In this document: piece after piece, positions 35,353-50,399 of the stretch
Layout: each line of letters starts with the position of its first letter
How positions within the stretch are numbered: the stretch's first letter is position 1
Assembly: GCA_964291405.2 (NCBI GenBank)
Contig: OZ219926.1
Coordinates: forward strand, 3,712,001-3,776,000
Length of the DNA: 64,000 bases
Direction: 5' to 3'
From: Thermodesulfobacteriota bacterium
Lineage (GTDB): Bacteria > Desulfobacterota > Binatia > Bin18
Made by a program: the position numbers and the translations under genes
Notes under the pieces: model-generated
What the model saw: only the letters and a program-made list of their open reading frames with translations
Database searches by the model: none
Told to the model about the DNA's origin: nothing

Positions 35353-35407
35353 TTCGGATAGTAACTATTTCCTTAGTATAGCATAGACACCGTGCTACTA
35401 TGCTACT

Positions 35408-35701
35408 ATGCTTCAGTCGTTCAAAAACGCTGGAACGGAAGATGTCTTCAACGGCAGACGAACGAAAAACGCAATGAAGTGTTGCCCCCTCTCACTTTGG
35501 AAGGTCGCAGGTCGTAAGCTTGATCAACTGGACTCAGCCGAAGCGCTCGAAGAAATGAAGGTCCCTCCAGGCAATCATTTAGAGGCGCTCTTGGGAGACC
35601 GGAGGGGACAGCATAGTATACGTATAAATGCGCAATACCGGATTTGTTTTACTTGGACACAGACAGGACCAGTACAGGTCGAGATAACTGACTACCATTA
35701 A
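35408..35701 (+). CDS. higB: HigB-type (RelE/ParE superfamily) toxin
   Basis: SFKNAGTEDVF, RKLDQLDSA, PPGNHLEAL.GDRRGQHSIRINAQYRICF, VEITDYH. Confidence 0.93.
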   Translation: MLQSFKNAGTEDVFNGRRTKNAMKCCPLSLWKVAGRKLDQLDSAEALEEMKVPPGNHLEALLGDRRGQHSIRINAQYRICFTWTQTGPVQVEITDYH

Positions 35702-35722
35702 GACTATACAAGAGGAGAAAAC

Positions 35723-36064
35723 ATGGTTCGTATTCCAACCCATCGCTCGCCAACCCATCCGGGAGAAATGCTTCTGGAGGAATTCTTACGCCCTATGAGC
35801 TTAACCCAGCGTGAGCTTGCAGCAAAGCTTCATGTGCCATACCAGCGGATTAACGAGTTGGTGCGAGGGCGGCGCGGCGTAAGTCCGGGAACGGCCTTAC
35901 GCTTAGCGAAGTTCTTTGGTACTTCTGCCGCTTTCTGGCTTAACCTTCAGCTCCGCTGGGACCTGTACCATGCCCAGCGCTCAGAGGCCAAGGAACTGAA
36001 GAGAATTCGGCAATACCCGCTCACCCGGCGCCCTGCCGACTCCATGGAAGAGAGCGTTGCGTAG
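35723..36064 (+). CDS. higA: HigA antitoxin (HTH)
   Basis: PTHPGEMLLEEFL, RINELVRGRRGVS, ALRLAKFFGTSAAFWLNLQ; toxin-first gene order. Confidence 0.93.
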   Translation: MVRIPTHRSPTHPGEMLLEEFLRPMSLTQRELAAKLHVPYQRINELVRGRRGVSPGTALRLAKFFGTSAAFWLNLQLRWDLYHAQRSEAKELKRIRQYPLTRRPADSMEESVA

Positions 36065-36097
36065 CAGGAAGGAGAAAACGCTTTCAATTCCTCCCCT

Positions 36098-37336
36098 TCA
36101 CCGGCGTACCCCCGGTATCTCTACAGGCAGGCCGCGGCCGCGCCAGGCTAGATACAATTCGAGATTCACGTAGTCGTCGGCCCCGTGGGCCAGGGGTTGG
36201 GCGCGGGTCGCGGTGTTGCACCAGGCAAACATGCGATGCGTTGACCCCAGCGTTTGCCAGCTTAGCCGATAGACGGGGAAGCCGTTGGTCTGTCCCTGGC
36301 TGATGACCTCACCCCGCAGGCGTTGCCCGGCATGCTCGTCGTGGCAATGGCTGCACGCCATGTCGAGTTGGCCGCGACGGCGCATGAAGAACGCTTTGCC
36401 CACCTCGAAAAACGGTGCGACCGGTCCCTCGATGTCCACACTCAGCGGCATCCCGCGTGACTGAAAACTCACAAACGCACTGAGTGCCAGCAAAGCTTCG
36501 GATTCATACGGGTAGGCTTCGACCTGAAGCTGTTCTGTCCGACAGCGATTAATCCGTTGCTCCAGATTGATGAGTTTCTCCGTGCGTGGATCGAATTGTG
36601 GGTAGCGGGTACGTACCCCGCGCATACTAGTTGCCGCGTCTCCATGACAACTGACACACGCCTGTTGGCTGTCGCCCTGGGTCTGGTCCCATAACTCACG
36701 GCCACGCTCGACCCATAACATCCCCGGATTGCCAAACGCGTCATTCTGTAGCTGTCGGTGTTCCTCCGACAGATAGGTATAACCGGAGCGACGACCTTCG
36801 ATACCGTACGGGGAAGTCTCGCGCTGCGGACTGCTCGGGATTTGGCCAGCCTCCGTCGCCTGTGGAGCTTCAGAGCGAAGCGTCAGGAGATACGCCACGA
36901 CATCTTCGATTTCCTGTGCGGTGAGGATCGGCTTGCCCCGGTAGGCTTCGAGTACGGAATGCAGACCCGCCACCGTATGATACGCCGGCATGATGGAGTG
37001 CGGGTTCAGCGCTTTGGGGTCTAGCAGTCGCAGGCGCAACTCAGCGGCGGTATAGCGATTCCCGACGTTATCCAAAGGTAACCCTACCGTGCCGTGGAAG
37101 CGGCGTTCGGGCAGCGGCAAGGCATGGCACACCACGCAATCGCCGCGCTCCCGATCGAGCACGATACGCTGTCCTCGCTCCGCGTCGCCGGGCTGTTCGG
37201 TCAAGGGGGTGGAAATCTCTTCATACCGGGTCTGCGGGCCGTCGAACTGCTGATTCTCCTGGGCGTAGAGAGTGCTCAGCACGAGAAGTCCGATCCACAT
37301 CTGGATAACAAAAGCTTTCCAATAGCTTCCGTACAT
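36098..37336 (-). CDS. soxA: Fused SoxX-SoxA triheme c-type cytochrome
   Basis: Signal peptide; SoxX part GDAERG..GDCVVCH..NPHSIMPAY..TAQEIEDVVAYL; SoxA part NPGMLWV, CVSCH, EQRINRCR, GQLDMACSHCH, FPVYRL, WCN, LELYLAWR. Confidence 0.9.
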   Translation of the reverse strand: MYGSYWKAFVIQMWIGLLVLSTLYAQENQQFDGPQTRYEEISTPLTEQPGDAERGQRIVLDRERGDCVVCHALPLPERRFHGTVGLPLDNVGNRYTAAELRLRLLDPKALNPHSIMPAYHTVAGLHSVLEAYRGKPILTAQEIEDVVAYLLTLRSEAPQATEAGQIPSSPQRETSPYGIEGRRSGYTYLSEEHRQLQNDAFGNPGMLWVERGRELWDQTQGDSQQACVSCHGDAATSMRGVRTRYPQFDPRTEKLINLEQRINRCRTEQLQVEAYPYESEALLALSAFVSFQSRGMPLSVDIEGPVAPFFEVGKAFFMRRRGQLDMACSHCHDEHAGQRLRGEVISQGQTNGFPVYRLSWQTLGSTHRMFAWCNTATRAQPLAHGADDYVNLELYLAWRGRGLPVEIPGVRR

Positions 37337-37349
37337 CGTAGCGTCGCCT

Positions 37350-38624
37350 TTACCCAAACGTATCGGCTGTAATATTGGCGTACCATGAGCGGGCGTAGGC
37401 CGCTTCGAGGGCGCGGGTTGTCTCCGGCGCGTTAAGCGGACTCGTGCCGCTCGACCCTGGGACGACCTGAATCGTATCGTTTTCAACGGAATACACGGCA
37501 CTGATAGAGATACCGTAGTCAGGCGCAACCAGGCTGTAACAGGTATTCATCAATGCCGGCTGTGCAACCGGCTCACCCCGGAGCCGGGCGACAATGGCCG
37601 CGGCGCAGCCCTTGGCCTGATTATTGGCGCTAAAGGCGGATTTGGGCATGGGGCTGGCGATGGCTGCGTCGCCAATAATATGGATGTTGGCATGTACGCG
37701 GGATTCGAATGTGCTGCCGTGTACGGGGCACCAGCCCGTACCAGCGTCGAGCCCGTCCACTCGCGTAATCGCTGCCGCGCGCTGCGGAGCAACAATGTTA
37801 GCTACCGCGGGCTTATACTCGTCAAACTCCGTGCGGACGATGCCGGTGCGGGTATCGACCTGGGTGACCCGTCCGCCCTGGGCGCCCGGTACCCATTCGA
37901 GCAGGTTCGGATATAGCTGCTTCCACGCGTCGAGAAACAGCTTGTCCTTGGTGAAACTGTCCTTGGCATCCAACAATAAGACTTTTGATTTTGGCTTATG
38001 GGTTTTGAGATAGTGAGCAATCAAACTGGCTCGTTCATACGGTCCTGGCGGACAACGGTAGGGCGTCTCCGGTACGCTGATCACCACTAGCCCGCCGTCT
38101 TCCATGGCTTCCAGTTGGCGGCGCAGCAGCAGCGTTTGCGAACCGGCCTGCCAGGCGTGCGGGAACACCGTACTGGCTTCGGCATCATAACCTTCTATTA
38201 CGTCCCAGCGCAGTTCAACCCCAGGGGATAAAACAAGCCTGTCATAGGCTAAGGTGCTACCATCACTGAGGGTGAGAATCCGTACGGTGGGATCAATCCC
38301 CTGGGCTTGGGCTTGGACAATCTGCACGCCATAGCCTTCCCGGAGCCGTCGGTAGGTATGAGTCAATGAGGCGAGCGAGCGAAGACCAGCCAGGGCCGCG
38401 TTGCTGAACGGACAAGTGATAAACTGACGCTGTGGGGTCACCAGCGTAACTTCAAGGCTTGGGTCGGCCAAGCGTAGATACTTTGCGCAGGCCGCCCCGC
38501 CAAAACCACCACCAACAACGACGACCCTGGCCTGGGTGTTTGCCCGCGCTCTGCCGGTCAGCAGACGAGCGAAAGGGAGGCTTCCGGCCAGGCTGAAGAA
38601 TTGACGGCGGGTGAAAAAGGACAT
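37350..38624 (-). CDS. fccB: Flavocytochrome c sulfide dehydrogenase flavoprotein (FccB/SoxF)
   Basis: Tat TRRQF; VVVGGGFGG, TCPFSN, PHAWQAG, YRCPPGPYERAS, MPKSAFSAN, NTCYS, C-terminal ADTFG. Confidence 0.93.
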   Translation of the reverse strand: MSFFTRRQFFSLAGSLPFARLLTGRARANTQARVVVVGGGFGGAACAKYLRLADPSLEVTLVTPQRQFITCPFSNAALAGLRSLASLTHTYRRLREGYGVQIVQAQAQGIDPTVRILTLSDGSTLAYDRLVLSPGVELRWDVIEGYDAEASTVFPHAWQAGSQTLLLRRQLEAMEDGGLVVISVPETPYRCPPGPYERASLIAHYLKTHKPKSKVLLLDAKDSFTKDKLFLDAWKQLYPNLLEWVPGAQGGRVTQVDTRTGIVRTEFDEYKPAVANIVAPQRAAAITRVDGLDAGTGWCPVHGSTFESRVHANIHIIGDAAIASPMPKSAFSANNQAKGCAAAIVARLRGEPVAQPALMNTCYSLVAPDYGISISAVYSVENDTIQVVPGSSGTSPLNAPETTRALEAAYARSWYANITADTFG

Positions 38625-38960
38625 CTAGTGCTGTCTGCGTGACCGTATAGCTGCGAAATAGGTTGTTACTGCCTCAATGTCCGCCTCACTCAGCCCTTTG
38701 GCAATCTGATTCATCACCGTCCCCTGACGCTCTTCGGTCCGAAACGCTTGTATGGCCGCTCTGAAATCCTCGGGTGACAGCCCGTCAAGCGCGGGAATGG
38801 CGCCCTGACTCTGCCCGTCAGGGCCGTGACAGGCCGCACAGGCCTGAGCCCAGGCCGCGCCGCGTGCCGGGATGGGGGCTGCGCTCACCAGGGTAGGGGA
38901 TGCCAGCAGGCCTGCCAGCAGGACAAAGAGCTGTTGTGTCAGGACAAGCGACCGTCTCAT
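38625..38960 (-). CDS. Monoheme cytochrome c (FccA-like partner)
   Basis: Signal peptide, CAACHG, GTVMNQIAKG Met ligand; abuts fccB. Confidence 0.88.
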   Translation of the reverse strand: MRRSLVLTQQLFVLLAGLLASPTLVSAAPIPARGAAWAQACAACHGPDGQSQGAIPALDGLSPEDFRAAIQAFRTEERQGTVMNQIAKGLSEADIEAVTTYFAAIRSRRQH

Positions 38961-39280
38961 TCGCTGACCGTGAGCGCTACGCGCTCGGATGTCGTGACTC
39001 CGGTATCGTCTGTCCACACGCACTCCAACTCGCCCGACCCTTCGGCTGTGGTAAAAAACGAGAAATACGGATTGGCGGCAATGCCGGGAAAGAGCTCCGC
39101 GTGGAAAACCTCTGCCCCGTTGTACATGCACCGAACGGTATGCACGATGTTTTTGGGAATCTTCTGGCCCACGTTGTTATATCGGAAGCCCGTTTCCATG
39201 GGGTGGCGGATGAGCAAACGCACCTCAAAGACCGCTCCGCGTTTGACACCCTCAGGGACTTTGATTCTCGCCTTGGTCAT
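38957..39280 (-). CDS. soxZ: SoxZ-family sulfur carrier subunit
   Basis: EVRLLIRHPMETG, IAANPYFSF, WTDDTG. Confidence 0.9.
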   Translation of the reverse strand: MTKARIKVPEGVKRGAVFEVRLLIRHPMETGFRYNNVGQKIPKNIVHTVRCMYNGAEVFHAELFPGIAANPYFSFFTTAEGSGELECVWTDDTGVTTSERVALTVSE

Positions 39281-39296
39281 GCCGTATGTCGCCCGC

Positions 39297-39779
39297 TCAG
39301 CTTCCCTCAACACAGGCCGCGGCCGTGACAACGACTTCCGCGCTTGCCATCCAGGCTGTTCCGTCATTCATGACCGCAACCGCAACAACCTGCTGGGTGC
39401 CGGCCAGTCGAATCCGGGTGTGGACCTCGGCCCGTCCGGCTCGTGGTCCAAGTGAGAAGCGGGCAATAACCGGTCTGGGGTTTTTTTCAGAAAAAATATG
39501 AATCCGCTGCACATGGGCCTGCGATGTCATCGGACTCTCAACCTGAACCCGCAGCCGGACGGAGTGGCCACTTTCGGCCAGGGTTGGCAGGGTCAGTGAG
39601 ACGCGACCGACCTGGGGCATCACCCCTCCGGCTGCCTCACGAATGAGCGGCACGAGCTTCTCGGGAAGAGCGTCTGCCGAACGCGCCTTCCCGAGCGGCA
39701 CGAGCAGGTAGCCCAGGGAACCAAGCAGACCAACGAGCACATGTCGCCGTGACAGACGATTAGGCCGGGCGTAAATCAT
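39297..39779 (-). CDS. soxY: SoxY paralogue with an AAC-type C-terminal arm
   Basis: Tat SRRHVL; LPTLAESG, EKNPRP, TRIRLAGTQQVVAVA; ends VVVTAAACVEGS instead of GGCGG. Confidence 0.85.
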   Translation of the reverse strand: MIYARPNRLSRRHVLVGLLGSLGYLLVPLGKARSADALPEKLVPLIREAAGGVMPQVGRVSLTLPTLAESGHSVRLRVQVESPMTSQAHVQRIHIFSEKNPRPVIARFSLGPRAGRAEVHTRIRLAGTQQVVAVAVMNDGTAWMASAEVVVTAAACVEGS

Positions 39780-41940
39780 GATTCTTTAACGGCAACGAAC
39801 GAATGCGCCTGCCAGTTGCCGCAAAGATGGCATTACACAGCGCCGGTGCAAGCGGGGCCATGCCCGGCTCGCCCACGCCACCCCAAAAACCGCCGGTCGG
39901 CTTGAGGATCACCTCAACCGTGGGCATCTCGGCTATCCGCATCATCCGGTAGTCATGAAAATTTGACTGTTCAACCCGGCCCTCCTTAATGGTGATCTCT
40001 CCGTACAGCGCGGCTGTCAGGCCGTAGACCACGCTACCTTCGAGTTGAGCCCGGACCGAGTCGGGATTGGCCACATAGCCGCAGTCAATACCGACAACCA
40101 CGCGATGGATGGTCAACTCACCTGAGACATTGACCGAGGCCTCAATGACCGCCGCAGTATAGCTTTCGTAGGAGTCCTGCACGGCAATCCCGCGGTGTAC
40201 GCCTTCCGGCAGAGGGCTATCCCATCCGGCGGCCTCAGCGACCGCGTCCAGAATGGCCAAGTCCTTCGACGCCTGAGGGGTCTGGAGGAGTACGCGTCGA
40301 AATTGGTACGGGTCCTGTCCGGCCGCATGGGCTAACTCATCAATAAAACTCTCCCGAAAGAACGGATTATGGGTGTGCGCCACCGCCCGCCACGGCCCTG
40401 GCGGCACGTGGGTGTTACGCATGGCGTATTCCATATGCATGTTCGGAAAGGCATACGGCGTGTCGGCAAAGGTCCGAACACCGACGATATCAACCCCGTC
40501 CCGAATCAGATGAGGGCGGACTGCACTGAAAATCGACTGCTCGGCCTGGCGCACGGTCCAGGCGGTTGGTTCTCCGGCCGCGTTGAGCGCGGCTCTCATG
40601 CGAACCAGGGCTACCGGCCGATAGCGACCGTGCTGGATATCCTCTTCTCTGGACCAGATCAATTGCACCGGGGTGCCGGACATGGTTTTGGCAATCCTGA
40701 CAGCCTGGCGAACAAACTCGATATACAGCCCGCGCCGCCCGAACCCTCCCCCGAGATGAACCTTGTGGACCTCGACCCGACTCACCGGAACGTCCGCGGT
40801 TTCAGCGGTCACGGCCGCGGTGGCCTCACTGTTCTGGGCCGGTGCCCAGACGTCAACCCGCTTGTCCGTATACAGCGCCGTGCAGTTCTGCGGTTCCATG
40901 GTGGCGTGCTCAAGATAGGGGGCATAATAGTCGGCTTCGATCGTTGTGGCCGCGTCGGAAAACGCGCTGTCGATATCGCCTTCCTGACGTGAGACCGGTG
41001 CCTTTTCGAGTTGTATGCCCTCGCGCAGAAACTCCAGGATGCTGTCGCTGCTAACCTGAGCGTGCTCCCCAAAATCCCACTCAATCGGCAGCGCACGGAG
41101 CGCCTGCTGCGCGTTCCACCAGCTCTCTTTGGCAACAACGACGACCGCGTCTTCCAGAGGAACGACCTTGACCACCCCGCGCATGTCGGCAATTTTTTTT
41201 GCGTCTACGCCTTTCAGGCTGCCGCCGAACACCGGACACTGGGCAATCGCGGCATAGACCATGCCGGGCAGCCGGGTATCAATCGCAAACGCGGTCTTGC
41301 CAGTGACCTTATCCGGGATGTCGAACCGGGCGGCCGGTTGGCCCAAAAGGGTCCAGTCTGCGGGGTCTTTGAGCAGTGGATTTTCCGGAATGTCGAGCGT
41401 GGCTGCCTCGGCCGCCACCGCCCCGAAGCTGAGTTGTTGCTGGGTTGGGATATGGGTGATGAGGCTGTTCTCGGCGACACATTCCGCGACCGGCACACCC
41501 CAGCGCTGCGCGGCCGCGGCGGTCAACATCAGCCGGGCCGCGGCTCCGGCGGTACGCAGATAGTCCTGGCTGTCCCGGATCGACCGGCTGCCGCCGGTGA
41601 GCATGGTGCGAAAAATCCGATTACGCCGCAGATGTTCGCTGGTTGACGCATATTCGGCCTGTACCTTACTCCAGTCACAGGCCAACTCTTCGGCAACCAG
41701 CATGGGCAGGCCGGTAAAATTACCCTGGCCCATTTCCACCCGTGCCACGCGAATGATGATGGTATCATCCGGTCGAATCAGGACCCAGGCGGTCACTTCG
41801 GGACTGGTCTCAACCTGAGCACTCGCCTGCTCCGCCTCTGCCGCAGAAGACTTGGGAAGTGTCACTTCCAGGAGCAGTCCACCCCCGACCGCGGCCGAGC
41901 GTAACAAAAACGAACGACGGGACATATGTTTCATCGGCAC
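39760..41940 (-). CDS. Xanthine oxidase-family molybdopterin subunit (IorB / aldehyde oxidoreductase large subunit type), Tat-exported
   Basis: SRRSFL Tat motif, EMGQG, TGGSRS, HATMEPQNC, GGGFGRR, WSREEDIQ, WRAV, AQLEG, SNFHDY, GGVGEP. Confidence 0.92.
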   Translation of the reverse strand: MPMKHMSRRSFLLRSAAVGGGLLLEVTLPKSSAAEAEQASAQVETSPEVTAWVLIRPDDTIIIRVARVEMGQGNFTGLPMLVAEELACDWSKVQAEYASTSEHLRRNRIFRTMLTGGSRSIRDSQDYLRTAGAAARLMLTAAAAQRWGVPVAECVAENSLITHIPTQQQLSFGAVAAEAATLDIPENPLLKDPADWTLLGQPAARFDIPDKVTGKTAFAIDTRLPGMVYAAIAQCPVFGGSLKGVDAKKIADMRGVVKVVPLEDAVVVVAKESWWNAQQALRALPIEWDFGEHAQVSSDSILEFLREGIQLEKAPVSRQEGDIDSAFSDAATTIEADYYAPYLEHATMEPQNCTALYTDKRVDVWAPAQNSEATAAVTAETADVPVSRVEVHKVHLGGGFGRRGLYIEFVRQAVRIAKTMSGTPVQLIWSREEDIQHGRYRPVALVRMRAALNAAGEPTAWTVRQAEQSIFSAVRPHLIRDGVDIVGVRTFADTPYAFPNMHMEYAMRNTHVPPGPWRAVAHTHNPFFRESFIDELAHAAGQDPYQFRRVLLQTPQASKDLAILDAVAEAAGWDSPLPEGVHRGIAVQDSYESYTAAVIEASVNVSGELTIHRVVVGIDCGYVANPDSVRAQLEGSVVYGLTAALYGEITIKEGRVEQSNFHDYRMMRIAEMPTVEVILKPTGGFWGGVGEPGMAPLAPALCNAIFAATGRRIRSLPLKNHDLRPA

Positions 41941-41944
41941 GTCT

Positions 41945-42418
41945 TTATCCTTTCATTTCGTCGTTCGAGCCAGATTTTTTGGCGGCCGTATGAATGGCGG
42001 CCCGAATACGCGTATACGTTCCGCACCGACAGATATTCGTTACGGCTTCGTTGATATCAGCGTCGGTTGGCTGAGGCTTTTTCTTCAGCAGCGCCGCGGC
42101 TGACATGATCATACCGGTCTGACAATACCCGCACTGCGGCACTTGATGCGTAATCCATGCCTGTTGTAAGGGGTGGCTGCCATCTGTAGAGAGCCCTTCT
42201 ATGGTCGTAATCTTCTTGCCCGCGGCAATAGAGACTGGTATGACGCACGAGCGCACCGGTTCACCGTCCAGATGGACGGTACAGGCTCCACACAGGGACA
42301 TGCCACAGCCGAATTTCGCCCCGGTCAGTCCCAGGATATCGCGCAAAACCCACAGCAGCCGCATGTTCGAGCTGACATCAACGCTGTGTTCCGTTCCGTT
42401 CACGGTCAGTGAAATCAT
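41945..42418 (-). CDS. [2Fe-2S]-binding small subunit (IorA/CoxS type)
   Basis: [38 protein letters not shown]. Confidence 0.95.
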
Positions 42419-42447
42419 GCTGACTCCTTATCACCTCAACGCTTGCC

Positions 42448-44397
42448 TCACTTACACACGTGTGGACTCGGCGGCACGTCTAAAGCAGGGCTGCGTTCAA
42501 AAAAGCCCACCGGCATCAGACTGAAGCCGGCATACTCGACCGGCATCACCGGCCAATCTTCGGGTCGCGGAATATGAGTGAGGCCAAAGGTATGCCAGAC
42601 AACGATATCGGTGTTCTCGATATTGCGTCCACGTGAATAGCGAAGCAGGCCCTCACCGCCGGGGCTCTGAAGCGTGATGTCGCCGGCCGCGCTGAGTTCG
42701 TCCGGCGTAAACGCGGTGACCCACAGATTATGCTGGGCAAACCCGGCCCGCTGCCCCACATAGGAGTCCGCCTGGGCAAACAGCGTCGGCGTCGCGCCAG
42801 CAAGCAGCTTATAGCCGACCGGCACCCCCAGCCGGTTTGTCCGTTGCGGGTTGACGATCTTCCAACTCCGGCTGGCCCGCGGGTCAATATCCCGCCGCGC
42901 CTCATCCTCGGATGCCAGGAGCGTCGTCTTGGCGCGGAACTGCGTCCCGTGCGGATTGTCCGGTCCGTGCGGCACGGGTTCGACATCGACCTCGTAGACC
43001 GAGTTGTGCTCACCGTCCACATCAAAATCGAGCCGAAAACAGAACAGATGCTGGTGAATTGGGGAGGCCAGGTTAGGCGCAATCAGCGGAGCGAACTCGG
43101 GCTGCTCGGCCCCGGTTTCAACCGCGCTGACACCGACGATACCGGTCAGTTTGACCTCCATCTGAATCGTACCGTCCAGATACAAATACCAGAAGAAGCC
43201 ATACTCATAATTCCCGACCGTAAAGAACGAGCTGACCACCAAACGTCGCGAGCGCCGAACTTCCGTGGTCGCGGACAGCAGGTCCCGGTGCTTCCACAGT
43301 ACGCCGTAATCTTCTTCGTGCATGCAGATGGCGTTTTCGATCGTATAGACAGAACCGTCGGCCAGCAGCGTGGGCATATCAAAGTAATAGATTTCGCCCA
43401 GACAATCGCAGCCCAGGGTGAGTGAATTGGCCAGATTGCCCACACTCGCTTCGCTGGCATCCAGCACGTGTTTCCAGGTGTGCATGGGGTCGCGGTCGCC
43501 ATAGGGCACCACCATGTCCGCCAGCGATGCCCGATACAGGATGGACCGCCGCTCCCCGGCATCGTCATAACTCAGGGTATGCAGGACCAGGCCGTGCTGG
43601 GGGTGCATACCGACCCGGAACGACCATTTCTGCCATTCCACCGCGTATCCATCGACGCGGAAACTCGGCCCCTCGGGTTGGGTAATGGAAAGAGGTTTCA
43701 GGTCGGCCCGCAGTGAAGGCTGATGGCCGGCCTCGTACCGCCCGCTCTCCGGCGGCAGGGCGACCGCGCCGTGGTCTTCCAGATGGACCACCCGGCCCGC
43801 GGTCAGGTCCACGTGGGCAATCAGACCCTGGAGCGGACGGGCATAGCCGTTGTCGGTTTTGTCCTCACGCACAAAGGCAATCGTCCGGGCCAGGCGATGG
43901 GTAGGGTCCACGCCGTTGGGGAGCGGGCCACTGCCCGGCCACATATCGATTTGCACCCGGCGCATATCCTCGATGCCGCGCCGTCTCACCGCGGCCTGCC
44001 AGGCGGGGTCGGCTTTGGTGAGCTTGATCGATAGCATGAGGTCCATTCCCCCAAACGGCACTTGGCCGCTGCTGAGACGCTGCACCTCAAGCAGTTCTCC
44101 CGTCGTGATATTAACCCGCGCCGCAAAACTGCCGGCCTGCCTGCCGTTGGCGTACTCGTCCACCCCCAGGAAGCGTAGCACCCGGGCAAAAGGCACGCCT
44201 GGGGTAAAGGCCTTGACCTCATCCTTGGGCGGCTCCACCAGACTGACGCTGGAGAAGGCGACCTGACCGCTCAGTTCGCCCGAGCCTTTGAGGATGGCCA
44301 CGCCGCGCTCAATCTCGCTCTGGCTCAGCGGCTCCAGGGGATGCGTGGGGGCGGTCTGCACGTGGTCTTCCTGTATATTCTGTATGGCGCTGGTCAT
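42448..44397 (-). CDS. Copper/topaquinone primary amine oxidase (Arthrobacter AGAO type, no signal peptide)
   Basis: HPLEPL, NGYARP, LGCDCLG, CMHEED, TVGNYEYG (TPQ tyrosine consensus), HQH and HIPRPEDWPVMP copper ligands. Confidence 0.95.
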   Translation of the reverse strand: MTSAIQNIQEDHVQTAPTHPLEPLSQSEIERGVAILKGSGELSGQVAFSSVSLVEPPKDEVKAFTPGVPFARVLRFLGVDEYANGRQAGSFAARVNITTGELLEVQRLSSGQVPFGGMDLMLSIKLTKADPAWQAAVRRRGIEDMRRVQIDMWPGSGPLPNGVDPTHRLARTIAFVREDKTDNGYARPLQGLIAHVDLTAGRVVHLEDHGAVALPPESGRYEAGHQPSLRADLKPLSITQPEGPSFRVDGYAVEWQKWSFRVGMHPQHGLVLHTLSYDDAGERRSILYRASLADMVVPYGDRDPMHTWKHVLDASEASVGNLANSLTLGCDCLGEIYYFDMPTLLADGSVYTIENAICMHEEDYGVLWKHRDLLSATTEVRRSRRLVVSSFFTVGNYEYGFFWYLYLDGTIQMEVKLTGIVGVSAVETGAEQPEFAPLIAPNLASPIHQHLFCFRLDFDVDGEHNSVYEVDVEPVPHGPDNPHGTQFRAKTTLLASEDEARRDIDPRASRSWKIVNPQRTNRLGVPVGYKLLAGATPTLFAQADSYVGQRAGFAQHNLWVTAFTPDELSAAGDITLQSPGGEGLLRYSRGRNIENTDIVVWHTFGLTHIPRPEDWPVMPVEYAGFSLMPVGFFERSPALDVPPSPHVCK

Positions 44398-44438
44398 ACT
44401 GGTTTCTCCTTTAGTAACGTGCCATCAGGGCGACCCGT

Positions 44439-45185
44439 TCAGCGTCCGCCCGAAATATCGTAGATCGTGGTGGTGACGTACGAGGCCTCATCCGTGCAGA
44501 TCCACACCACCAGATTGGCCACCTCTTCGGGCTCGCAGATACGCCCCAGGACCGTCTGCGCTTTGGCAATGGCTTCGGCCCGCTCAATGCCGATACTCGC
44601 TTCAAAAATTTCCGTCCGGGTAATTCCGGGCCGCACGCAACAGACCCGGATCCCCTCGGGTCCGACTTCCCTGGACAGGCCCATGGTAAAGGAATCAAGC
44701 GCACCCTTGCTGGAGGCGTAGACCACATCACCCGGCAGCCCACCGTACCGCGAGGAAATGGAGCCGACGTTGACGATCACGCCTCCGGCGCCACCACGTT
44801 TGGTGGACATACGTTTAATGGCCTCGCGAGCGCTTACGAACACGCCAAAGATATTGAGATTATAAACTCCCCGGATACGCTCCAACTTGGCGTCGACGAC
44901 CGCCGTCTCATAGTCGATCGCGGCATTATTCACCAGGGCGGTGACCGGGCCGAGTTCGGCATCGGTCCGGCGAAACAACTCAACAACGCCCTCTTCCGTT
45001 CCCACATCAGCTTGCACGGCAATCGCCCGTTGCCCGGCCTGGGTCACGTCGTGGACCACCTCTTCGGCCCGGTCCTTGGCACGCGCATAATTGACGCATA
45101 CGTCAAACCCGGCCCGCGCCGCTCGCCGTGAAATAGCGGCTCCAATGCCGCGACTTCCTCCCGTCACGATCATGACACCCGACAT
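44439..45185 (-). CDS. Short-chain dehydrogenase/reductase
   Basis: TGGSRGIG, LVNNA, YASSKG, VRPG. Confidence 0.92.
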   Translation of the reverse strand: MSGVMIVTGGSRGIGAAISRRAARAGFDVCVNYARAKDRAEEVVHDVTQAGQRAIAVQADVGTEEGVVELFRRTDAELGPVTALVNNAAIDYETAVVDAKLERIRGVYNLNIFGVFVSAREAIKRMSTKRGGAGGVIVNVGSISSRYGGLPGDVVYASSKGALDSFTMGLSREVGPEGIRVCCVRPGITRTEIFEASIGIERAEAIAKAQTVLGRICEPEEVANLVVWICTDEASYVTTTIYDISGGR

Positions 45186-45198
45186 CCTGTCTCCTTTT

Positions 45199-47265
45199 TT
45201 AGAGGGCAATCGTCAGCAGAGAACTGCCGTCGGCCTGGACGGTCAGCCGGTCAGCCGGGTTGACGACCACCGTGGTCGTGGCGAACTCAACGATAGCCGG
45301 GCCGGTGAGCTGGTCACCCGCCGCCAGCGCGTCGCCCTGATAAATGTCGGTTTCCACCTCGGCATTGACCCCGGCCATATAGGCCATGCGTCGGCTGGTC
45401 GGTTGTGGCCGGCCCGCGGCCTGTTTGGCCAGCCGCCCCTCGGGGGCGGGGCGGTTACCCGTGGCGGCGATCCGCCAGTGCAGGCACTCAATGGGCTGGT
45501 CGCGCATCGAATAGGTAAATCGCCGCTCGTGCTCGTCATGAAAGTCGGCTTCGAGTCGCCGCAAGAGGTCGGCGTCAATCGGTCCTTCTGGCAGCGGTAC
45601 CGTCAGGTTGTGAACCTGGCCCGGATAGCGTCCCTCCAGGTGCCGGGCGAACCGAACCTCTTCGGGCTGAAAGCCCTCCTCCTCAAGATGGGCGCCGCCC
45701 TCGGCGATCAAGTCGTCAAACACCCGGGCGATGTCCGTGGCAGCGCCTGACTGATTCGTATAGCAGTGGTGGAGGCGCACATAGTCATGCCGCACCGGCG
45801 TAACCGCCATACCGAACGCGCACAGCCCACCCGCGGAGCGCGGAATCAGCACCTCTCCGATCTCAAGCATGCGGGCCAACTCGGCCGCGTGCAGGCCACC
45901 CGCACCGCCGCCCGCAACCATGACATAGTCGCGAGGATCGATGCCGCGCTCAATCGAGACCGCTCGGATGGCCGAGGCCATATTCGAGTTCACGATGGTC
46001 AGGATGCCGGCCGCTGCCTCGCGGACGGACAGTCCCAACGGCGTGGCAATATGTTCGGCGATGGCCCGTTGTGCGAGGCTCTCGTCGAGGGAACGCCGTC
46101 CGCCCAGAAACGCACCGGGCGACATCCGCCCGACGGCCAGGTTGGCGTCGGTGACTGCGGGCGCACGGCCACCCCGGCCATAACAGGCCGGACCCGGCTG
46201 GGAACCTGCGCTCTGTGGTCCAACCCGCATCGCCTTGCCGCTGTCGAGCCAGGCAATGGAGCCGCCACCGGCGCCGATCGATAGCACTTCGACCCCATTC
46301 ACCCCGATAGGCTGGTGGGCAACCTTAATATCGGTTGACATGACCGGTTCGCTGTCGCGCAGCATGCAGACGTCGAAGCTGGTCCCGCCCATGTCGATAA
46401 TGATCAGCCGGTCGGGGGCTTTGGTATCCGAGGCGTAGTGCGCACCCGCGGCCGGTCCGGCCGCGGGACCCGAGGCCACCGCGTTGACAGGTCGGGCCAA
46501 AAGGTCCGGCACAGACGCACAGCCGCCGTTGACCTGCATGATCTGGGGCGGGTGGGGCAGGCCGCCGGCCACCATCTCTTTCTCAAAGGCGCGTAGATAG
46601 TCACCGATAATAGGCGCGATATAGGCCGACAGCACGGTTGCCGAGGTGCGTTCCCACTCGCGAATCTCCGGCAGGACATCGGAAGAGCACAGCACATCGA
46701 CGCCGGGCAGCTCCTCGCGCACGATCTCTGCGGTTCGTCTTTCGTGGCTCGGATCGACGATGGACCACAGATAGGCAACCGCCACCGCTTTGACGCCGTG
46801 GGCGCCGAGCCGCTGGGCCGCGACGCGAACCGCCTCTTCGTCGAGCGGCAGGACCTCGGAGCCGTCTGCGCCGGTACGCTCGGGAATGCCCAGACGCAAA
46901 TAGCGTGGAATAAAGTCCTCGGGCTTCTGGAGGTGGATGTTGAATCGCTCGGGCTTCCCGCCCCGGCCCAGATACATGATATCCCGGAGCCCCTGGGTAC
47001 ACAGCAGGCCAATGACCGGACCGTTGCGCTGTATCAGGGCGTTGGTCGCCATGGTCTGGCCGTGAACCAGAAATTCCGTCTCACGCAAAAGCTCTGCGAC
47101 CGTGGTCCCTGCTTCCCCGGCCATCCCGCTGAGCCCCCGCGTAATCGCGAGCAGCGGTTGGTCAGGAGTCGAGTCTTCTTTGTAGACGTGGAACCTGCCG
47201 TCGTCGCGCAGCAGGACCACATCGGTGAAGGTGCCGCCGATATCGATACCGACTCGATGCCCCAT
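45199..47265 (-). CDS. Hydantoinase A/oxoprolinase-family ATP-binding subunit (HyuA/CapA-like)
   Basis: IDIGGTFTD, TMATNAL, EIREWERT, SGPAAG, DMGGTSFD, GAGGGSIA, PGPACYG, GGAGGLH. Confidence 0.93.
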   Translation of the reverse strand: MGHRVGIDIGGTFTDVVLLRDDGRFHVYKEDSTPDQPLLAITRGLSGMAGEAGTTVAELLRETEFLVHGQTMATNALIQRNGPVIGLLCTQGLRDIMYLGRGGKPERFNIHLQKPEDFIPRYLRLGIPERTGADGSEVLPLDEEAVRVAAQRLGAHGVKAVAVAYLWSIVDPSHERRTAEIVREELPGVDVLCSSDVLPEIREWERTSATVLSAYIAPIIGDYLRAFEKEMVAGGLPHPPQIMQVNGGCASVPDLLARPVNAVASGPAAGPAAGAHYASDTKAPDRLIIIDMGGTSFDVCMLRDSEPVMSTDIKVAHQPIGVNGVEVLSIGAGGGSIAWLDSGKAMRVGPQSAGSQPGPACYGRGGRAPAVTDANLAVGRMSPGAFLGGRRSLDESLAQRAIAEHIATPLGLSVREAAAGILTIVNSNMASAIRAVSIERGIDPRDYVMVAGGGAGGLHAAELARMLEIGEVLIPRSAGGLCAFGMAVTPVRHDYVRLHHCYTNQSGAATDIARVFDDLIAEGGAHLEEEGFQPEEVRFARHLEGRYPGQVHNLTVPLPEGPIDADLLRRLEADFHDEHERRFTYSMRDQPIECLHWRIAATGNRPAPEGRLAKQAAGRPQPTSRRMAYMAGVNAEVETDIYQGDALAAGDQLTGPAIVEFATTTVVVNPADRLTVQADGSSLLTIAL

Positions 47266-47267
47266 GT

Positions 47268-49193
47268 TTAGGTCTCCTGCGGCGGAGCGCTGAAGTTCCG
47301 GGCGATGGTCGGGGCTTCGAGATAGCGGTCGCCGGGGCGCATGTTCTGCTGCGTCCACGTGCCGGCAGCCGGGGTGGTGGGCTCGATCATCGGGCGTTCG
47401 TTCTTACGCATTTCGGCCCGGAGCTTTTCGGTCGCGGCAACGTCGAGGCTGCGCTCAAGATCGTCCTTGACCACCACGCCAAACACGTTGTAGGCCGTGT
47501 CTTCGCTGATCCACTCGTCCCGCAGATCGCGGCGCACCTGTTCCGGGTCGCGGTCAAGCGGGTTGCCCCAGCCGCCGCCGCCTGCGGACACCCCGTTCCA
47601 GGTTTCGCCTTCGCGAATCAGTAATTGCCCCGCGGAGGAGGTAAACGTCCGGCTGCCATCAGCGTGCTCAATATAGATGCCGCCGCCTGGGCTCATGGTA
47701 CCGCCGTTCACCCCGTGCGGCGGGTTCTTCAGGCCCTCACCAAAGCCGACACACTCCATGTCACCGGCAATCGGCCGATAGCGCGTGCGCAGCCCTGGCC
47801 CACCGATCCACTTTCCCATGCCTATGGCATCGGTCTCAATCTCGTTCTGCTCGACGCGGATCGGATAGAGCAACTCCAACTGCTCGATCGAGGCCGAGGT
47901 GAGCCCGCCCATGCCGGCGATGGTGCACAGGACTGGCCACCCATCGGCGTCCTTTGCCGCGCCCTGGCCCCCACCGCTGTTGAACAGCATACAGCCCCAC
48001 TCCTTGCCGGTTCGGGAATCAACCCCGTTAAAATTCGGAACATGAGCGGTGTGCGCCCCGCCCGCGGGCACACGCTCGGGGATGGCCTCAGCCATGGCGA
48101 TATTGATCACCTCGTGCATAGGGTCGGCCGGATTCTGGGTTGCCCCTGCCACCGCGGCCGGCCACTTGGCCAGGCAGATGGTGTTGTCGTCGGCGTTGGC
48201 GCTGATGTGTTGCAGCACACCGTGGTTATGAGGAATGTCGGAGTCAATATAGTACAGGAAGGGGATCGTCGAGGTTGCCATCATGACCGCATAGGTCGCG
48301 TTGAACGAGCCGGTGGACGGCGGCCCCCCGCTGTAGTGCACGTGGATATCCGCGCCCTTCTTGGTGATGGTGGCCCGGATCGGGATATCGGTGGCCCCAT
48401 TGCCGTCGGTATCGGTCCAGGTCTCGCCGTGGTAGATGCCGTCGGGAATCGCGCGGAACTCCTCCGACGCGCGCTGGTCGGCGTAATCCATGAGCCCGTC
48501 GCTATAGCGCACGACCTCGTCGCGGCCGTACTGCTCGCACAGCTCGATCAGTCCCTTGCGGGCCACGCCACAGGCCCCGAGCTGGGCGCGCAGGTCGCCG
48601 TGCAGGGCGTCCCGATAGCGCACGTTGGCGAGATACAGCTCGACAATATCGTGGCGTTCGATCCCGCGGTCGACCAGCTTGGTCGGCGGAATGACGATGC
48701 CCTCCTGGAAGATCGTCTTTGCCGCAGGCACGATGCTCGACGCTTCGATAGCACCGGTATCGAGCTGATGGCCACGCGCCACGGTCCAGAACACCTGCTT
48801 GCCGTCCACAAAGACCGGCTGGGCCGTCACCAGGTCCGGGATATGGGTGTTGCCCCGATAGGGGTCGTTCGACATATACACGTCGCCGTCGTGGATATCG
48901 TCCCCAAACACGGAGACAATTTCCATCAGCAGGGTCCGAATGCTGTTGCAGTGGATAGGCAGGCAATCGGCCATGGTGACCTGACGCGGCCCGCTAGAGT
49001 GGGCGTCGTAGATCATGCACGAGTAGTCGCGGGCCAGGGCGATAACCGAGGTCCAGGCCGTCTGCTCCATGGCCAGGGTCATCTCCTGACCGATGGCTTC
49101 AAAGCGGTTGCGGATCACACTAAAAGTGATGGGGTCGAACGCTGCCTCCGTGGGCGGCAGAGGGATGGCATCAATCTTACTGGCCGTTGCCAT
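47268..49193 (-). CDS. Hydantoinase B/oxoprolinase-family metal-binding subunit (HyuB/CapB-like)
   Basis: DPITFSV, RDYSC, PIH, NDPYRGNTHIPD, RGHQLDTG, FQEG, SIEQLE, GGGGWGNP. Confidence 0.93.
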   Translation of the reverse strand: MATASKIDAIPLPPTEAAFDPITFSVIRNRFEAIGQEMTLAMEQTAWTSVIALARDYSCMIYDAHSSGPRQVTMADCLPIHCNSIRTLLMEIVSVFGDDIHDGDVYMSNDPYRGNTHIPDLVTAQPVFVDGKQVFWTVARGHQLDTGAIEASSIVPAAKTIFQEGIVIPPTKLVDRGIERHDIVELYLANVRYRDALHGDLRAQLGACGVARKGLIELCEQYGRDEVVRYSDGLMDYADQRASEEFRAIPDGIYHGETWTDTDGNGATDIPIRATITKKGADIHVHYSGGPPSTGSFNATYAVMMATSTIPFLYYIDSDIPHNHGVLQHISANADDNTICLAKWPAAVAGATQNPADPMHEVINIAMAEAIPERVPAGGAHTAHVPNFNGVDSRTGKEWGCMLFNSGGGQGAAKDADGWPVLCTIAGMGGLTSASIEQLELLYPIRVEQNEIETDAIGMGKWIGGPGLRTRYRPIAGDMECVGFGEGLKNPPHGVNGGTMSPGGGIYIEHADGSRTFTSSAGQLLIREGETWNGVSAGGGGWGNPLDRDPEQVRRDLRDEWISEDTAYNVFGVVVKDDLERSLDVAATEKLRAEMRKNERPMIEPTTPAAGTWTQQNMRPGDRYLEAPTIARNFSAPPQET

Positions 49194-49535
49194 GGGTGCA
49201 CTCCTTTACAAAACGGTTCTACTCACAGACCGGGCTACCACAGGAAAACGTCTCCGAATCGTAAACGCTGAGGCGTGAAGAATCAATGCGTTCCGCTGGG
49301 TAAGCGTGGGCTGACTGGCAGCGCCTGGGAGTGAGGACCATATTGGCGTGGTAACAGAATAGTCAGAATTTTGTCATTGCGGATCTAGAGTGAGAGAGGT
49401 ACGGCGGCAGAGTGGGGACGGGTGGTGGGACCGCTTCCCAAATCGATCTCAGGCGGGCATACTCGACTTGGTCGGGCAAAAGGCGGTCCCGAACTCAACC
49501 TGGAAGGGCCATGCGTGCCTCAGGAGGGAAACCCC

Positions 49536-50399
49536 ATGCATACCCTCACCTTGTCTCCATTGCATCCCGTGTTTGTTGCCGAAGTCCAGGGGCTGGACCT
49601 GCGGCAGCCAATTGATGCAGATTTAGCAGCCGAGATTGAGGCGGCTCTGGATGAGTTCGCCATATTGGTCTTCCGCGACCAGGTTCTGGACGAATCCCAG
49701 CAGATGGCGTTTACCCGCGCACTCGGTCCCGTTGATATGGGGCTGCTCAAGGTGTTGCAGCGGCGGAGTCGATTCAAAGAGGCCGGGATGATCGACATCT
49801 CCAACGTTGATCTCGAAAGCCAGATTCTAGAGCGGGACGACCCGCGCCTGATTACCATGCTGGCCAACCAGCTCTGGCACAGCGACAGCTCGTTCAAGCA
49901 CCCGGCGGCCAAGTATTCCTTGCTGCTGGCCTGTATTGTGCCCGAGCAGGGAGGGGAAACCGAGTTCGCTGATATGCGTGCGGCCTATGACGCTCTGCCG
50001 GACGATGTCAGGGGGGAGATCGAAGGGCTGGTGGTCGAACACTCTGCCTTTCATTCGCGTATTCAGCTCGGCGATCAGCAATACACGCCGGAAGATTTGG
50101 CCAAGTATCCAACCGTGGAATGGCCTATCGTCCGTACTCATCCGGGCTCCCGGCGGAAGACACTCTTTATCGGGGCGCATGCCACGCGCATTGTGGAACG
50201 GCCCGTCCCGGAAGGACGGCTCTTGCTCGCCGAGCTCTTAGAGCATGCGACGCAACGTCGGTTTGTGTACCGCCATACCTGGCGTCCGGGTGATCTGGTG
50301 ATCTGGGACAATCGCGCTGTCCTGCATCGCGGCCGCCGCTACGATCTTTCCCAGCGGCGTGAGTTGCGCCGGAGTACGGTCGAAGACGTCCGGGTGTGA
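49536..50399 (+). CDS. TauD/TfdA-family Fe(II)/2-oxoglutarate dioxygenase (TfdA/SdpA-like)
   Basis: DISNVD, NQLWHSDSSF (HxD), GGETEFADMRAAYD, HPGSRRKTL, WDNRAVLHR. Confidence 0.92.
   Translation: MHTLTLSPLHPVFVAEVQGLDLRQPIDADLAAEIEAALDEFAILVFRDQVLDESQQMAFTRALGPVDMGLLKVLQRRSRFKEAGMIDISNVDLESQILERDDPRLITMLANQLWHSDSSFKHPAAKYSLLLACIVPEQGGETEFADMRAAYDALPDDVRGEIEGLVVEHSAFHSRIQLGDQQYTPEDLAKYPTVEWPIVRTHPGSRRKTLFIGAHATRIVERPVPEGRLLLAELLEHATQRRFVYRHTWRPGDLVIWDNRAVLHRGRRYDLSQRRELRRSTVEDVRV

Follow-up and report, generated by a model that had tools for sequence, protein, structure and literature searches.

Eleven co-oriented genes lie on the minus strand of the window, the 64,000-nucleotide stretch of DNA from a sponge-associated bacterium that was analyzed here (Table 1). 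ORF calls, Pfam, and NCBIfam bore out the positions, order, strand, and identities given in a preliminary description, and the successive spacings of 2, 13, 41, 29, 4, −20, 16, −4, 0, and 13 nucleotides (nt) were recovered when recomputed from start codons, the negative value of −20 being a 20-nt overlap of soxY and iorB in this genome. A consensus scan of 35500 to 50000 placed no terminator-like site between genes on the minus strand, as had been described. The sole minus-strand terminator-like site in that interval is within fccB, and there are 7 such sites in all versus 11.7 expected from shuffles. No sigma-70-like promoter was found by the same scan. In its short spacings and its lack of an intergenic terminator, the run has the form of a single operon.

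Table 1. Features of the eleven-gene run, with positions numbered from the first letter of the window
Feature	Position	Strand	Unit	Matches and sequence features
hyuB-like	47268..49193	-	A	PF02538 Hydantoinase_B 449 bits; ATP-dependent hydantoinase/oxoprolinase family
hyuA-like	45199..47265	-	A	PF01968 Hydantoinase_A, with PF05378 and PF19278 (N-/C-terminal domains)
SDR	44439..45185	-	A	adh_short 160.7 bits; best NCBIfam model PRK06123, 256 bits (below cutoff of 383)
Copper (TPQ) primary-amine oxidase	42448..44397	-	A	NF008559 829 bits (cutoff 651); PF01179 518 bits
Amine oxidase stop/iorA start junction	42419..42447	-		29 nt; AAGGAG ahead of ATG
iorA, [2Fe-2S] small subunit of molybdenum hydroxylase	41945..42418	-	B	Fer2_2 104 bits, with Fer2
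iorB, molybdopterin-binding large subunit	39760..41940	-	B	MoCoBD_1 and MoCoBD_2; twin-arginine signal SRRSFLL
soxY, noncanonical arm	39297..39779	-	B	TIGR04487 "AACIE arm" 161.6 bits; C terminus ...VTAAACVEGS
soxZ	38957..39280	-	B	PF08770 95.5 bits; TIGR04490 85 bits (cutoff 76)
Small mono-heme cytochrome c	38625..38960	-	B	PF00034 33 bits; one CxxCH; signal peptide; FccA/SoxE-like position
fccB (FccB/SoxF-type flavoprotein)	37350..38624	-	B	PF21706 FCSD_central 157 bits; PF09242 FCSD-flav_bind 95 bits; twin-arginine signal
Fused soxXA, tri-heme cytochrome	36098..37336	-	B	TIGR04485 SoxX 73.8 bits (cutoff 61); TIGR04484 SoxA 224.8 bits (cutoff 110); three CxxCH

We refer to the first four genes, hyuB-hyuA-SDR-copper amine oxidase, as unit A. 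HyuA and HyuB both contain full-length family domains, like CapAB and the ATP-dependent hydantoinase-oxoprolinase enzymes, and caprolactamase is the top-scoring named model for each. However, unlike CapAB, they fall far under the 1,000-bit equivalog cutoffs, HyuA scoring 672 bits against the NCBIfam caprolactamase alpha model and HyuB 396 bits against the beta model. Genome-wide there are about 22 paralogous hyuA/hyuB pairs, that of unit A included. With scores of this kind and so many paralogues, the HyuAB substrate cannot be named, and the presence of one such pair beside a sox block is unremarkable. The copper amine oxidase is a single copy genome-wide, and its sequence contains GNYEY, matching the N-Y-[DE] motif that is the TPQ precursor of copper amine oxidases. 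By inspection of the sequences, no signal peptide is visible on any unit A protein, including HyuB and the amine oxidase. Unit A is probably a cytoplasmic lactam or amine catabolic set organized around one hyuAB pair.

The other seven genes, iorA-iorB-soxY-soxZ-cytochrome c-fccB-soxXA, constitute unit B, which is exported; IorB, SoxY, FccB, the cytochrome, and SoxXA each have a visible twin-arginine or signal sequence. The preliminary description had cautioned that the first four genes look more GC-rich and cytoplasmic while the last seven are mostly exported, and both observations hold. GC3 is 0.69 to 0.81 in the first four genes, with the value of 0.81 belonging to hyuB, versus 0.63 to 0.71 in the last seven. 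The codon-usage comparison suggested there also separates the two blocks, unit A genes ranking between the 81st and 98th percentiles of codon fit and unit B genes between the 8th and 72nd. All eleven genes are under purifying selection, with dN/dS of 0.04 to 0.26 in comparison with five congeners.

The Sox components of unit B resemble the canonical system (SoxXA, SoxYZ, SoxB, and SoxCD, with SoxEF in Paracoccus) in that SoxX, SoxA, and SoxZ score above the NCBIfam equivalog cutoffs, a flavoprotein and a small cytochrome occupy the SoxF and SoxE positions, and the proteins are exported. The carrier arm differs, reading AACVEGS and not GGCGG, and SoxY reaches only 104 bits against the GGCGG-type model TIGR04488 (cutoff 125). 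The best-scoring model is TIGR04487, "SoxY-related AACIE arm protein," a family that to our knowledge has a name but no function. The score of 161.6 bits is just under the TIGR04487 cutoff of 172, which the orthologue in genome G025 exceeds with 177.9, and the arm fits the family name, AAACVEGS containing the pattern A-A-C-[IV]-E that is conserved as x-A-C-[VILT]-[ED] in 45 loci. A second departure is that no SoxB match was obtained with TIGR04486 at E ≤ 0.001 anywhere in this 97.5%-complete genome. SoxB was not found in three of five other genomes containing the cassette, and the two that have it carry a second SoxY beside SoxB. SoxCD is also lacking at the locus, although the genome encodes three sulfite-oxidase-family molybdenum domains at other sites, none nearer than about 230 kb. 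The earlier characterization of the locus as a noncanonical Sox relay without soxB or soxCD is correct. Genome-wide, SoxY, SoxA, and FccB occur at this locus only.

Further differences from canonical Sox lie in the IorAB molybdenum hydroxylase fixed upstream of soxY and in the cytochromes. SoxX and SoxA are closer to others linked to this arm type (36 to 75% identical, the proteobacterial ones 36 to 53%) than to the canonical SoxX and SoxA found (25 to 34%). FccB is like that of FccAB in having the FccB-specific central and flavin-binding domains and in abutting a small cytochrome c gene with a 0-nt gap, but unlike FccAB it is embedded in an IorAB-Sox cassette. Most proteobacterial cassettes lack FccB.

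IorA and IorB have the domain composition of a two-subunit IorAB-type enzyme, Fer2 and Fer2_2 in the small subunit and MoCoBD_1 and MoCoBD_2 in the large one, and no FAD-binding subunit was matched among the eleven genes with Pfam and NCBIfam. The IorB-type gene is a single copy in this genome. Among solved chains, IorB is closest to 8gy3_C, "large subunit of aldehyde dehydrogenase" (236 bits, residues 5 to 724), from a structure that we take to be AldFGH, the membrane-bound aldehyde dehydrogenase of acetic acid bacteria. The shared features are a large molybdopterin subunit with a small subunit bearing two [2Fe-2S] clusters, the lack of an FAD subunit, twin-arginine export, and presumably electron delivery to c-type cytochromes. 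However, AldFGH has a three-heme cytochrome subunit, whereas here IorAB is partnered by genes for SoxYZ and SoxXA. Residues G688, G690, E691, and P692, in the G-x-G-E-P segment whose glutamate is catalytic in IorAB-type hydroxylases, are invariant across 14 cassette IorB sequences.

This genome was compared with 75 loci found with SoxY. Among the 45 loci with an x-A-C-[VILT]-[ED] arm, which span Binatia, Alphaproteobacteria, and Betaproteobacteria, iorB is directly upstream of soxY in 44, and at the sole exception, L084, the contig ends 910 nt ahead of soxY. Of 26 loci with other types of SoxY arm, none has iorB (0 of 16 GGCGG arms and 0 of 10 SGC(G)D arms). In the same vein, among 40 relatives, exactly the 19 that bear this SoxY also have an IorB of at least 75% identity; more distant IorB types are present in three genomes without such a SoxY (G026, G027, and G034). 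Five loci (L069, L070, L078, L082, and L088) consist of iorA-iorB-soxY-soxZ alone, with neither SoxXA nor a nearby ORF containing CxxCH. The core of IorAB and the SoxYZ of this arm type has been kept together as one block across the Binatia, Alphaproteobacteria, and Betaproteobacteria, and our search of the literature found no paper on a strict coupling of IorB to an AACIE-arm SoxY.

Linkage of this cassette to unit A is far narrower in scope. The hyu and amine oxidase genes stand beside it in 20 of the 75 loci, all from one Candidatus Binatia genus, and in this genome. These 21 genomes divide into 10 with tight junctions of 12 to 32 nt and 11 with inserts of 0.78 to 5.9 kb of unrelated DNA. 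In five loci the genes within the insert were identified; they include an ABC_tran/FtsX/LolA_like operon on the opposite strand, a cyclophilin-FKBP gene, and toxin genes of the PIN and PemK types. There are also loci that have the cassette, or its core, but not unit A. No hyu or amine oxidase gene was found up to 10 kb to each side of another 25 loci that share the arm, comprising 7 more distant Binatia-type loci (L058 to L061 and L063 to L065) and 18 proteobacterial ones, or of two loci with a VSSCT arm. Conversely, unit A is present in two congeners, G019 (a single contig, 97% complete) and G014, and a genome-wide search of either found neither SoxY-AAC nor a close IorB. In G025 the two units are on separate contigs. 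Units A and B are separable, and each occurs alone.

The junction itself records how the two came to abut. In relatives, a conserved palindrome, GCTTGACAGAC-N8-GTCTTTCAAGC, which contains TTGACA, lies some 66 nt ahead of the iorA ATG. Every one of the 11 genomes with an insert has it (9 exact, 2 with one mismatch), as do four distant Binatia loci, once per locus. No tight-junction locus has it, and a pattern search gave 0 matches in this genome. The 29-nt spacer here corresponds by homology to the final ~35 nt of the leader in relatives and is, on this evidence, the scar of a deletion that took the cassette's own upstream palindrome. The loss makes cotranscription of the amine oxidase gene and iorA, and so of units A and B as a derived fusion, plausible in this lineage. 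Contigs from RNA libraries (sponge metatranscriptomes) match both blocks, and among those listed the amine oxidase/iorA junction (42418 to 42448) is neither bridged nor broken. The junction is not conserved among relatives; 11 of the 21 genomes have an insert there, and in those the cassette has a palindrome of its own.

These comparisons bear directly on the pathway that the preliminary description had put forward, in which HyuAB opens an N,S-heterocycle, the amine oxidase and IorAB oxidize the resulting aminothiol, and the Sox-like proteins capture the sulfur. The tight spacing without a terminator-like site in this genome would suit such a scheme, as would the adjacency of the blocks in 21 of 21 genomes of the genus with both, the retention of dN/dS near 0.1 in the 10 genomes that lost the cassette's upstream element, and the RNA-library contigs matching both blocks. 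However, the proposal failed the synteny test, since the linkage is limited to one genus and interrupted in 11 of its 21 genomes, in G005 and G021 by a 5.9-kb opposite-strand operon, and since each block is found without the other. Moreover, the proteins of unit A are cytoplasmic and those of unit B exported, codon usage is unlike between them, and adjacency is cheap when a genome has some 22 hyuAB pairs. We regard a single pathway as highly improbable; the caveat offered alongside it, of two modules that merely happen to be neighbors, was right.

A weaker connection could have arisen after the deletion, with the aldehyde made by the amine oxidase becoming an IorAB substrate in the tight-junction lineage as a secondary pathway. 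The adjacency of the units in every congener that has both, together with the loss of the element in ten genomes whose genes all remain under purifying selection, makes a benefit of coexpression possible, and amine oxidases do make aldehydes, the nearest solved relative of IorB being an aldehyde dehydrogenase subunit. Yet the amine oxidase has no signal peptide and IorB has a twin-arginine signal, which puts product and enzyme in different compartments, and 11 congeners hold the units apart. An adaptive fusion of this kind seems very unlikely to us. The explanation that we favor, and consider likely, is that the run comprises two ancestrally independent units set back to back by a deletion, with unit B a carrier-based system and any read-through accidental. 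The cassette would then probably be read through from the amine oxidase gene in this genome, and coexpression of the two units would be an accident of the deletion, not the sign of a shared pathway.

What unit B does is a separate matter. In the carrier mechanism that we propose, SoxXA would oxidatively load the SoxY arm cysteine with a thiol or a reduced sulfur species, assisted by FccB and its cytochrome where these are present. IorAB would then oxidize the carrier-bound group with water, taking the place of SoxB and SoxCD, and electrons would pass through its own Fe-S clusters to c-type cytochromes. That SoxYZ of this arm type and IorAB form an unrecognized system, in which a xanthine-oxidase-family enzyme acts on a group tethered to a carrier cysteine, is a tentative suggestion that we hold to be possible but somewhat doubtful. 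No member of the xanthine oxidase family is known to us to use sulfane sulfur or a protein-tethered group as its substrate, which weighs against it, and the five core-only loci indicate that loading by SoxXA cannot be universal.

A carbon substrate fits as well as sulfur, given the nearest relative of IorB and the five PQQ alcohol dehydrogenases above the family cutoff in this genome, one of them within the window. The SoxY cysteine could trap aldehydes from the PQQ dehydrogenases as thiohemiacetals for oxidation by IorAB, with the cytochromes only carrying electrons. The similarity of IorB to the 8gy3_C chain at 236 bits is in keeping with this, the minimal iorAB-soxYZ loci would need no SoxXA, and NCBIfam includes a "quinoprotein dehydrogenase-associated" SoxYZ-like carrier, TIGR04557, to which there is a weak match here. 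According to PMC11237559, other divergent SoxYZ fusions are linked to alcohol, methanol, and formate dehydrogenase loci. However, of the 25 unit-A-free loci that share this arm, 16 have both SoxX and SoxA linked (L084 too, whose contig ends before iorB), and an FccB-type sulfide dehydrogenase flavoprotein is found in 11 of the unit-A-free loci with SoxX and SoxA. The only chemistry known to us for SoxXA is sulfur-sulfur bond formation, and aldehyde oxidation by the enzyme family of IorB is not known to need a thiol. We therefore judge aldehyde handling to be unlikely.

Unit B might instead service the enzyme. Members of the xanthine oxidase family need a terminal sulfido ligand that can be lost, and cytoplasmic chaperones could no longer reach the molybdenum center of an exported IorB; SoxXA and FccB might load sulfane sulfur onto SoxY, which would restore the labile ligand. 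The one-to-one co-occurrence of this SoxY arm type with IorB agrees with such a role, and so does the presence of carrier-loading proteins with none to take the sulfur on to sulfate, there being no SoxB. However, a five-protein apparatus would be costly for repair, many exported IorAB, PaoABC, and aldehyde dehydrogenase enzymes work without one, and the distant IorB types in G026, G027, and G034 occur without such a SoxY. We think it quite improbable that unit B exists for repair.

Under the reading that we favor, unit B is a widespread and unstudied sulfur-carrier system that always accompanies a molybdenum enzyme. If the carrier mechanism is correct, unit B with its own SoxXA would be a periplasmic branch of sulfur or organosulfur oxidation independent of both SoxB and SoxCD, and its range would take in, at a minimum, Binatia, Alphaproteobacteria, and Betaproteobacteria, sponge symbionts among them.

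The eleven genes lie on the minus strand at the positions assigned to them in the preliminary description, and searches with Pfam and NCBIfam models bore out every identity (see the table). The spacings of 2, 13, 41, 29, 4, -20, 16, -4, 0, and 13 nucleotides (nt) were reproduced from the start codons, and a consensus scan gave no same-strand terminator between the genes, as had been claimed, and no sigma-70-like promoter in the run. The four proteins of unit A, the hyu-SDR-amine oxidase block, show no visible export signal. Those of unit B, the iorAB-sox cassette, are exported, with twin-arginine motifs on IorB, SoxY, and FccB and signal peptides on the cytochromes. SoxY, SoxA, and FccB occur at a single location in the genome, the cassette locus, and no second IorB-type gene was found in that genome.

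Coordinates and model support of the features discussed
Feature	Location	Strand	Support or remark
Unit A	window 42448-49193	minus	
HyuB-type and HyuA-type subunits		minus	Pfam/NCBIfam
SDR		minus	Pfam/NCBIfam
Copper amine oxidase		minus	NF008559, 829 bits (cut-off, 651)
Amine oxidase-iorA spacer	window 42419-42447		29 nt
Unit B (cassette)	window 36098-42418	minus	
IorA (2x[2Fe-2S]) and molybdopterin IorB		minus	Pfam/NCBIfam
SoxY		minus	best model TIGR04487, "SoxY-related AACIE arm protein," 161.6 bits (cut-off, 172)
SoxZ, small cytochrome c, FccB, fused SoxX-SoxA		minus	Pfam/NCBIfam
PQQ-dependent alcohol dehydrogenase	window 6125-7654 (G000:C3:3718125-3719654)	minus	above TIGR03075 cut-off
1217-aa ORF	window 24053-27706	minus	one hyuA/hyuB match pair
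soxXA 3' copy	window 35190-35360 (context 33900-36070)	minus	
TauD/luciferase-like gene set	window 49422-53090	plus	divergent from hyuB
Amine oxidase orthologue in G025	L143 (contig C27) 9343-10949		residues 112-403 and 432-648
Third-class soxY locus in G027	L039 3400-9950		

These genes had been proposed to form a single pathway for degradation of an N,S-heterocycle, and the gene order in relatives does not bear this out. Window proteins were mapped onto 18 relatives' loci of 14 to 20 kb each, and a second set of 75 loci, one genome per species, came from a SoxY alignment search. The closest loci belong to Candidatus Binatia metagenome-assembled genomes. Near-identical DNA is present in sponge-metagenome runs from 13 studies, and passages of published work (PMC9999580) describe sponge-associated Binatota as methylotrophs. 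Among the 75 loci, the synteny check placed unit A beside unit B only in 20 close relatives. With the window's genome included, 10 of the 21 junctions are tight (12 to 32 nt), and the other 11 hold 0.78 to 5.9 kb of unrelated DNA. The inserts include a 5.9-kb opposite-strand ABC transporter/FtsX/LolA-like operon (two genomes), two PIN-toxin pairs (one genome), a cyclophilin-FKBP gene (one genome), and a PemK-like toxin gene on the opposite strand, accompanied by a small antitoxin-like ORF (L038); the latter ORF recurs in L031 and L035. At seven Binatia-type loci that are more distant, the full seven-gene cassette is present (on a cut contig in one case), and no hyu or amine oxidase genes were found in the 0.4 to 7.4 kb of DNA upstream of them. 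Conversely, the hyu-SDR-amine oxidase block occurs in genomes G019 (97% complete, in a single contig) and G014, and neither a SoxY of the cassette type nor a close IorB was found in them. In another relative, G025, the amine oxidase and the cassette are on different contigs. The caveat that two separate modules may simply be adjacent thus agrees with the relatives' gene order, and adjacency, together with a deletion specific to this lineage, most likely accounts for the proposed eleven-gene pathway.

The suspected GC step between the two halves is real, and the codon-usage comparison also separated them: against long ORFs, the first four genes fall at the 81st to 98th percentile, whereas the last seven fall at the 8th to 72nd. 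Horizontal acquisition of unit A or unit B was considered and rejected because both blocks lie inside the genome's codon-usage range. Beyond a higB-higA pair is a copy of the last ~55 soxXA codons (WQTLGSTHRMFAWCN...), adjoining a 312-amino-acid ORF (orf312) that has no family match. The GC content of this stretch is 47 to 52%, and orf312 and higB, at the 0th percentile of codon fit, look foreign, alone among the genes compared. The stretch looks like an inserted toxin-antitoxin island with a duplicated or displaced soxXA 3' end. The remnant is also present in the closest congener (L062); elsewhere in the congeners, pxpA is directly 3' of soxXA.

About 75 nt 5' of iorA are conserved in all 11 insert-bearing genomes. 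This leader contains a palindrome, GCTTGACAGAC-N8-GTCTTTCAAGC, with TTGACA inside, ~66 nt before the iorA ATG. In 13 distinct genomes, the pattern TTGACAGAN{8,14}TCTTTCAA gave one match at each locus (L023, L025, L027 to L029, L031, L035, L037, L058, L059, L063, L064, and L066, among others). Distant Binatia without the hyu block account for four of these genomes, and one-mismatch versions occur in G007 and G020. No match was found in any tight-junction locus or anywhere in the window's genome. The palindrome is probably an operator that overlaps a -35-like TTGACA. The window's spacer shows homology to the final ~35 nt of the relatives' leader. The most economical reading is an ancestral arrangement with two transcription units, followed in this lineage by one deletion that took out the intergenic region. 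All eleven genes are under purifying selection (dN/dS of 0.04 to 0.26 against five congeners), and therefore the cassette must still be expressed, most simply via read-through from the amine oxidase gene. We regard co-transcription of the two units in the window's genome as likely. The RNA data were short contigs from four metatranscriptome runs, libraries in which DNA may be present, and these contigs match both units. Among the pieces listed, the hyuB-hyuA, hyuA-SDR, SDR-amine oxidase, iorA-iorB, and soxY-soxZ boundaries are bridged; none of those pieces, some of which may derive from DNA, bridges the amine oxidase-iorA junction. As the eleven-gene "operon" illustrates, unrelated units can be joined by a single deletion, and tight spacing in one genome is therefore weak evidence for a shared pathway.

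Unit A is a cytoplasmic set comprising an ATP-dependent hydantoinase/oxoprolinase-family enzyme, an SDR, and a TPQ amine oxidase. Its hydantoinase/oxoprolinase-type subunits score far under the cut-offs of the caprolactamase models, and a substrate therefore cannot be named. The hydantoinase/oxoprolinase family is greatly expanded in the window's genome, where tblastn gave ~22 hyuA and 21 hyuB paralogue matches, so that a hyuAB pair beside any given locus is unremarkable. One match pair lies in a single 1217-amino-acid ORF that looks like a fused form. The amine oxidase orthologue of G025 (76 to 84% identical, in two pieces) also comes after an SDR and a hyuB-hyuA pair, here from a different paralogue group, so that a real link between HyuAB and the amine oxidase gains some support. 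That orthologue may be frameshifted or broken, as its two-piece alignment suggests. Upstream of hyuB, a divergent set encodes a TauD-family dioxygenase, an F420-type luciferase-like oxidoreductase, a glutathione S-transferase, and a second luciferase-like oxidoreductase. Of the 16 genus loci mapped, 11 carry all or some of these genes.

In unit B, IorAB is strictly coupled genetically to one type of SoxY carrier. In 45 of the 75 loci, the SoxY arm fits x-A-C-[VILT]-[ED], and iorB is immediately 5' in 44 of them, the remaining contig stopping 910 nt before soxY. Two more loci, with SoxY ending in VSSCT, likewise follow iorB, and no iorB was found at the 16 GGCGG loci or the 10 SGC(G)D loci. An IorB of at least 75% identity occurs in exactly the 19 of 40 relatives that have a cassette-type SoxY. 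The cassette core is conserved far outside the Binatia, with a proteobacterial order of iorA-iorB-soxX-soxY-soxZ-soxA, sometimes followed by fccB. The linked SoxX and SoxA proteins are clearly nearer to the window's (36 to 53% identity for the proteobacterial ones) than are the canonical ones found (25 to 34%). The cassette is also independent of SoxB. Among five other cassette genomes, two have a SoxB above the cut-off, in both cases next to a second SoxY; none was found in the remaining three or in the window's 97.5%-complete genome. Prediction of an IorB-SoxY-SoxZ complex gave 0.75 (three runs), against 0.00 and 0.00 for IorB-replaced controls; with SoxY replaced the value was 0.56, too near that of the real complex, and the prediction was given no weight in either direction. 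A G-x-G-E-P segment is invariant across 14 cassette IorB sequences. A SoxY homologue search returned generic names alone ("sulfur-oxidizing protein SoxY"), without context. The coupling of IorAB to SoxYZ is both consistent and widespread.

A third SoxY arm class, ending in SGC(G)D(L/V)PPQ, was seen in L039, L086, L087, L090, L093, L094, L096, L097, L099, L101, and L105, paired with SoxZ and a divergent fccB; a cytochrome gene adjoins fccB in L039, L087, and L094. By eye, L039 also encodes a putative YeeE-like membrane protein and, directly after the cytochrome gene, a 793-amino-acid ORF resembling a xanthine-dehydrogenase-family large subunit.

Within a two-module frame, we tentatively suggest that SoxXA, with FccB where present, would load a reduced sulfur species or a thiol onto the SoxY arm cysteine, that IorAB would then oxidize the tethered group, and that electrons would exit via the c-type cytochromes. 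Alternatively, unit B may act on an aldehyde as a thiohemiacetal. Three observations favor this aldehyde role: the closest solved relative of IorB is an aldehyde dehydrogenase large subunit (8gy3_C, 236 bits), the genome encodes five PQQ alcohol dehydrogenases, and five minimal loci consist of iorA-iorB-soxY-soxZ alone, with no SoxXA and no haem-motif ORF nearby. As a further alternative, the Sox proteins of unit B may restore the sulfido ligand of the IorAB enzyme. All five PQQ-dependent alcohol dehydrogenase genes exceed the TIGR03075 cut-off, one of them within the window, and a tandem run of five genes partially matching this model lies near C3:1.10 Mb.

Four or six proteins of unit B resemble those of the Sox system, but its SoxY does not end in the defining GGCGG arm, and no SoxB was found. 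The window's SoxY fits TIGR04487, a curated family without a function. No link of SoxY or SoxYZ to IorAB or a molybdenum hydroxylase was found in the papers searched, although supplementary gene lists could hold one; in passages of papers that name SoxY as well as isoquinoline 1-oxidoreductase, the two are treated separately. According to passages of a broad SoxY survey (PMC11237559), sequences without "GGC" were discarded, and the x-A-C-[VILT]-[ED] arm type therefore fell outside it.

Scoring of genomes as "thiosulfate oxidiser" routinely relies on Sox genes, and the cassette would count there as a partial Sox system. Its carrier arm, SoxXA, and fixed molybdenum partner show that it is something else. 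The system lends itself to direct testing: it comprises six or seven genes, its exported proteins are soluble, and some of its hosts, such as Rhodomicrobium (L080), are in culture. We know of no xanthine-oxidase-family enzyme with a protein-tethered substrate; if IorAB acts on a carrier-bound group, it would be the first, and a SoxB-independent route in the sulfur cycle would also open.
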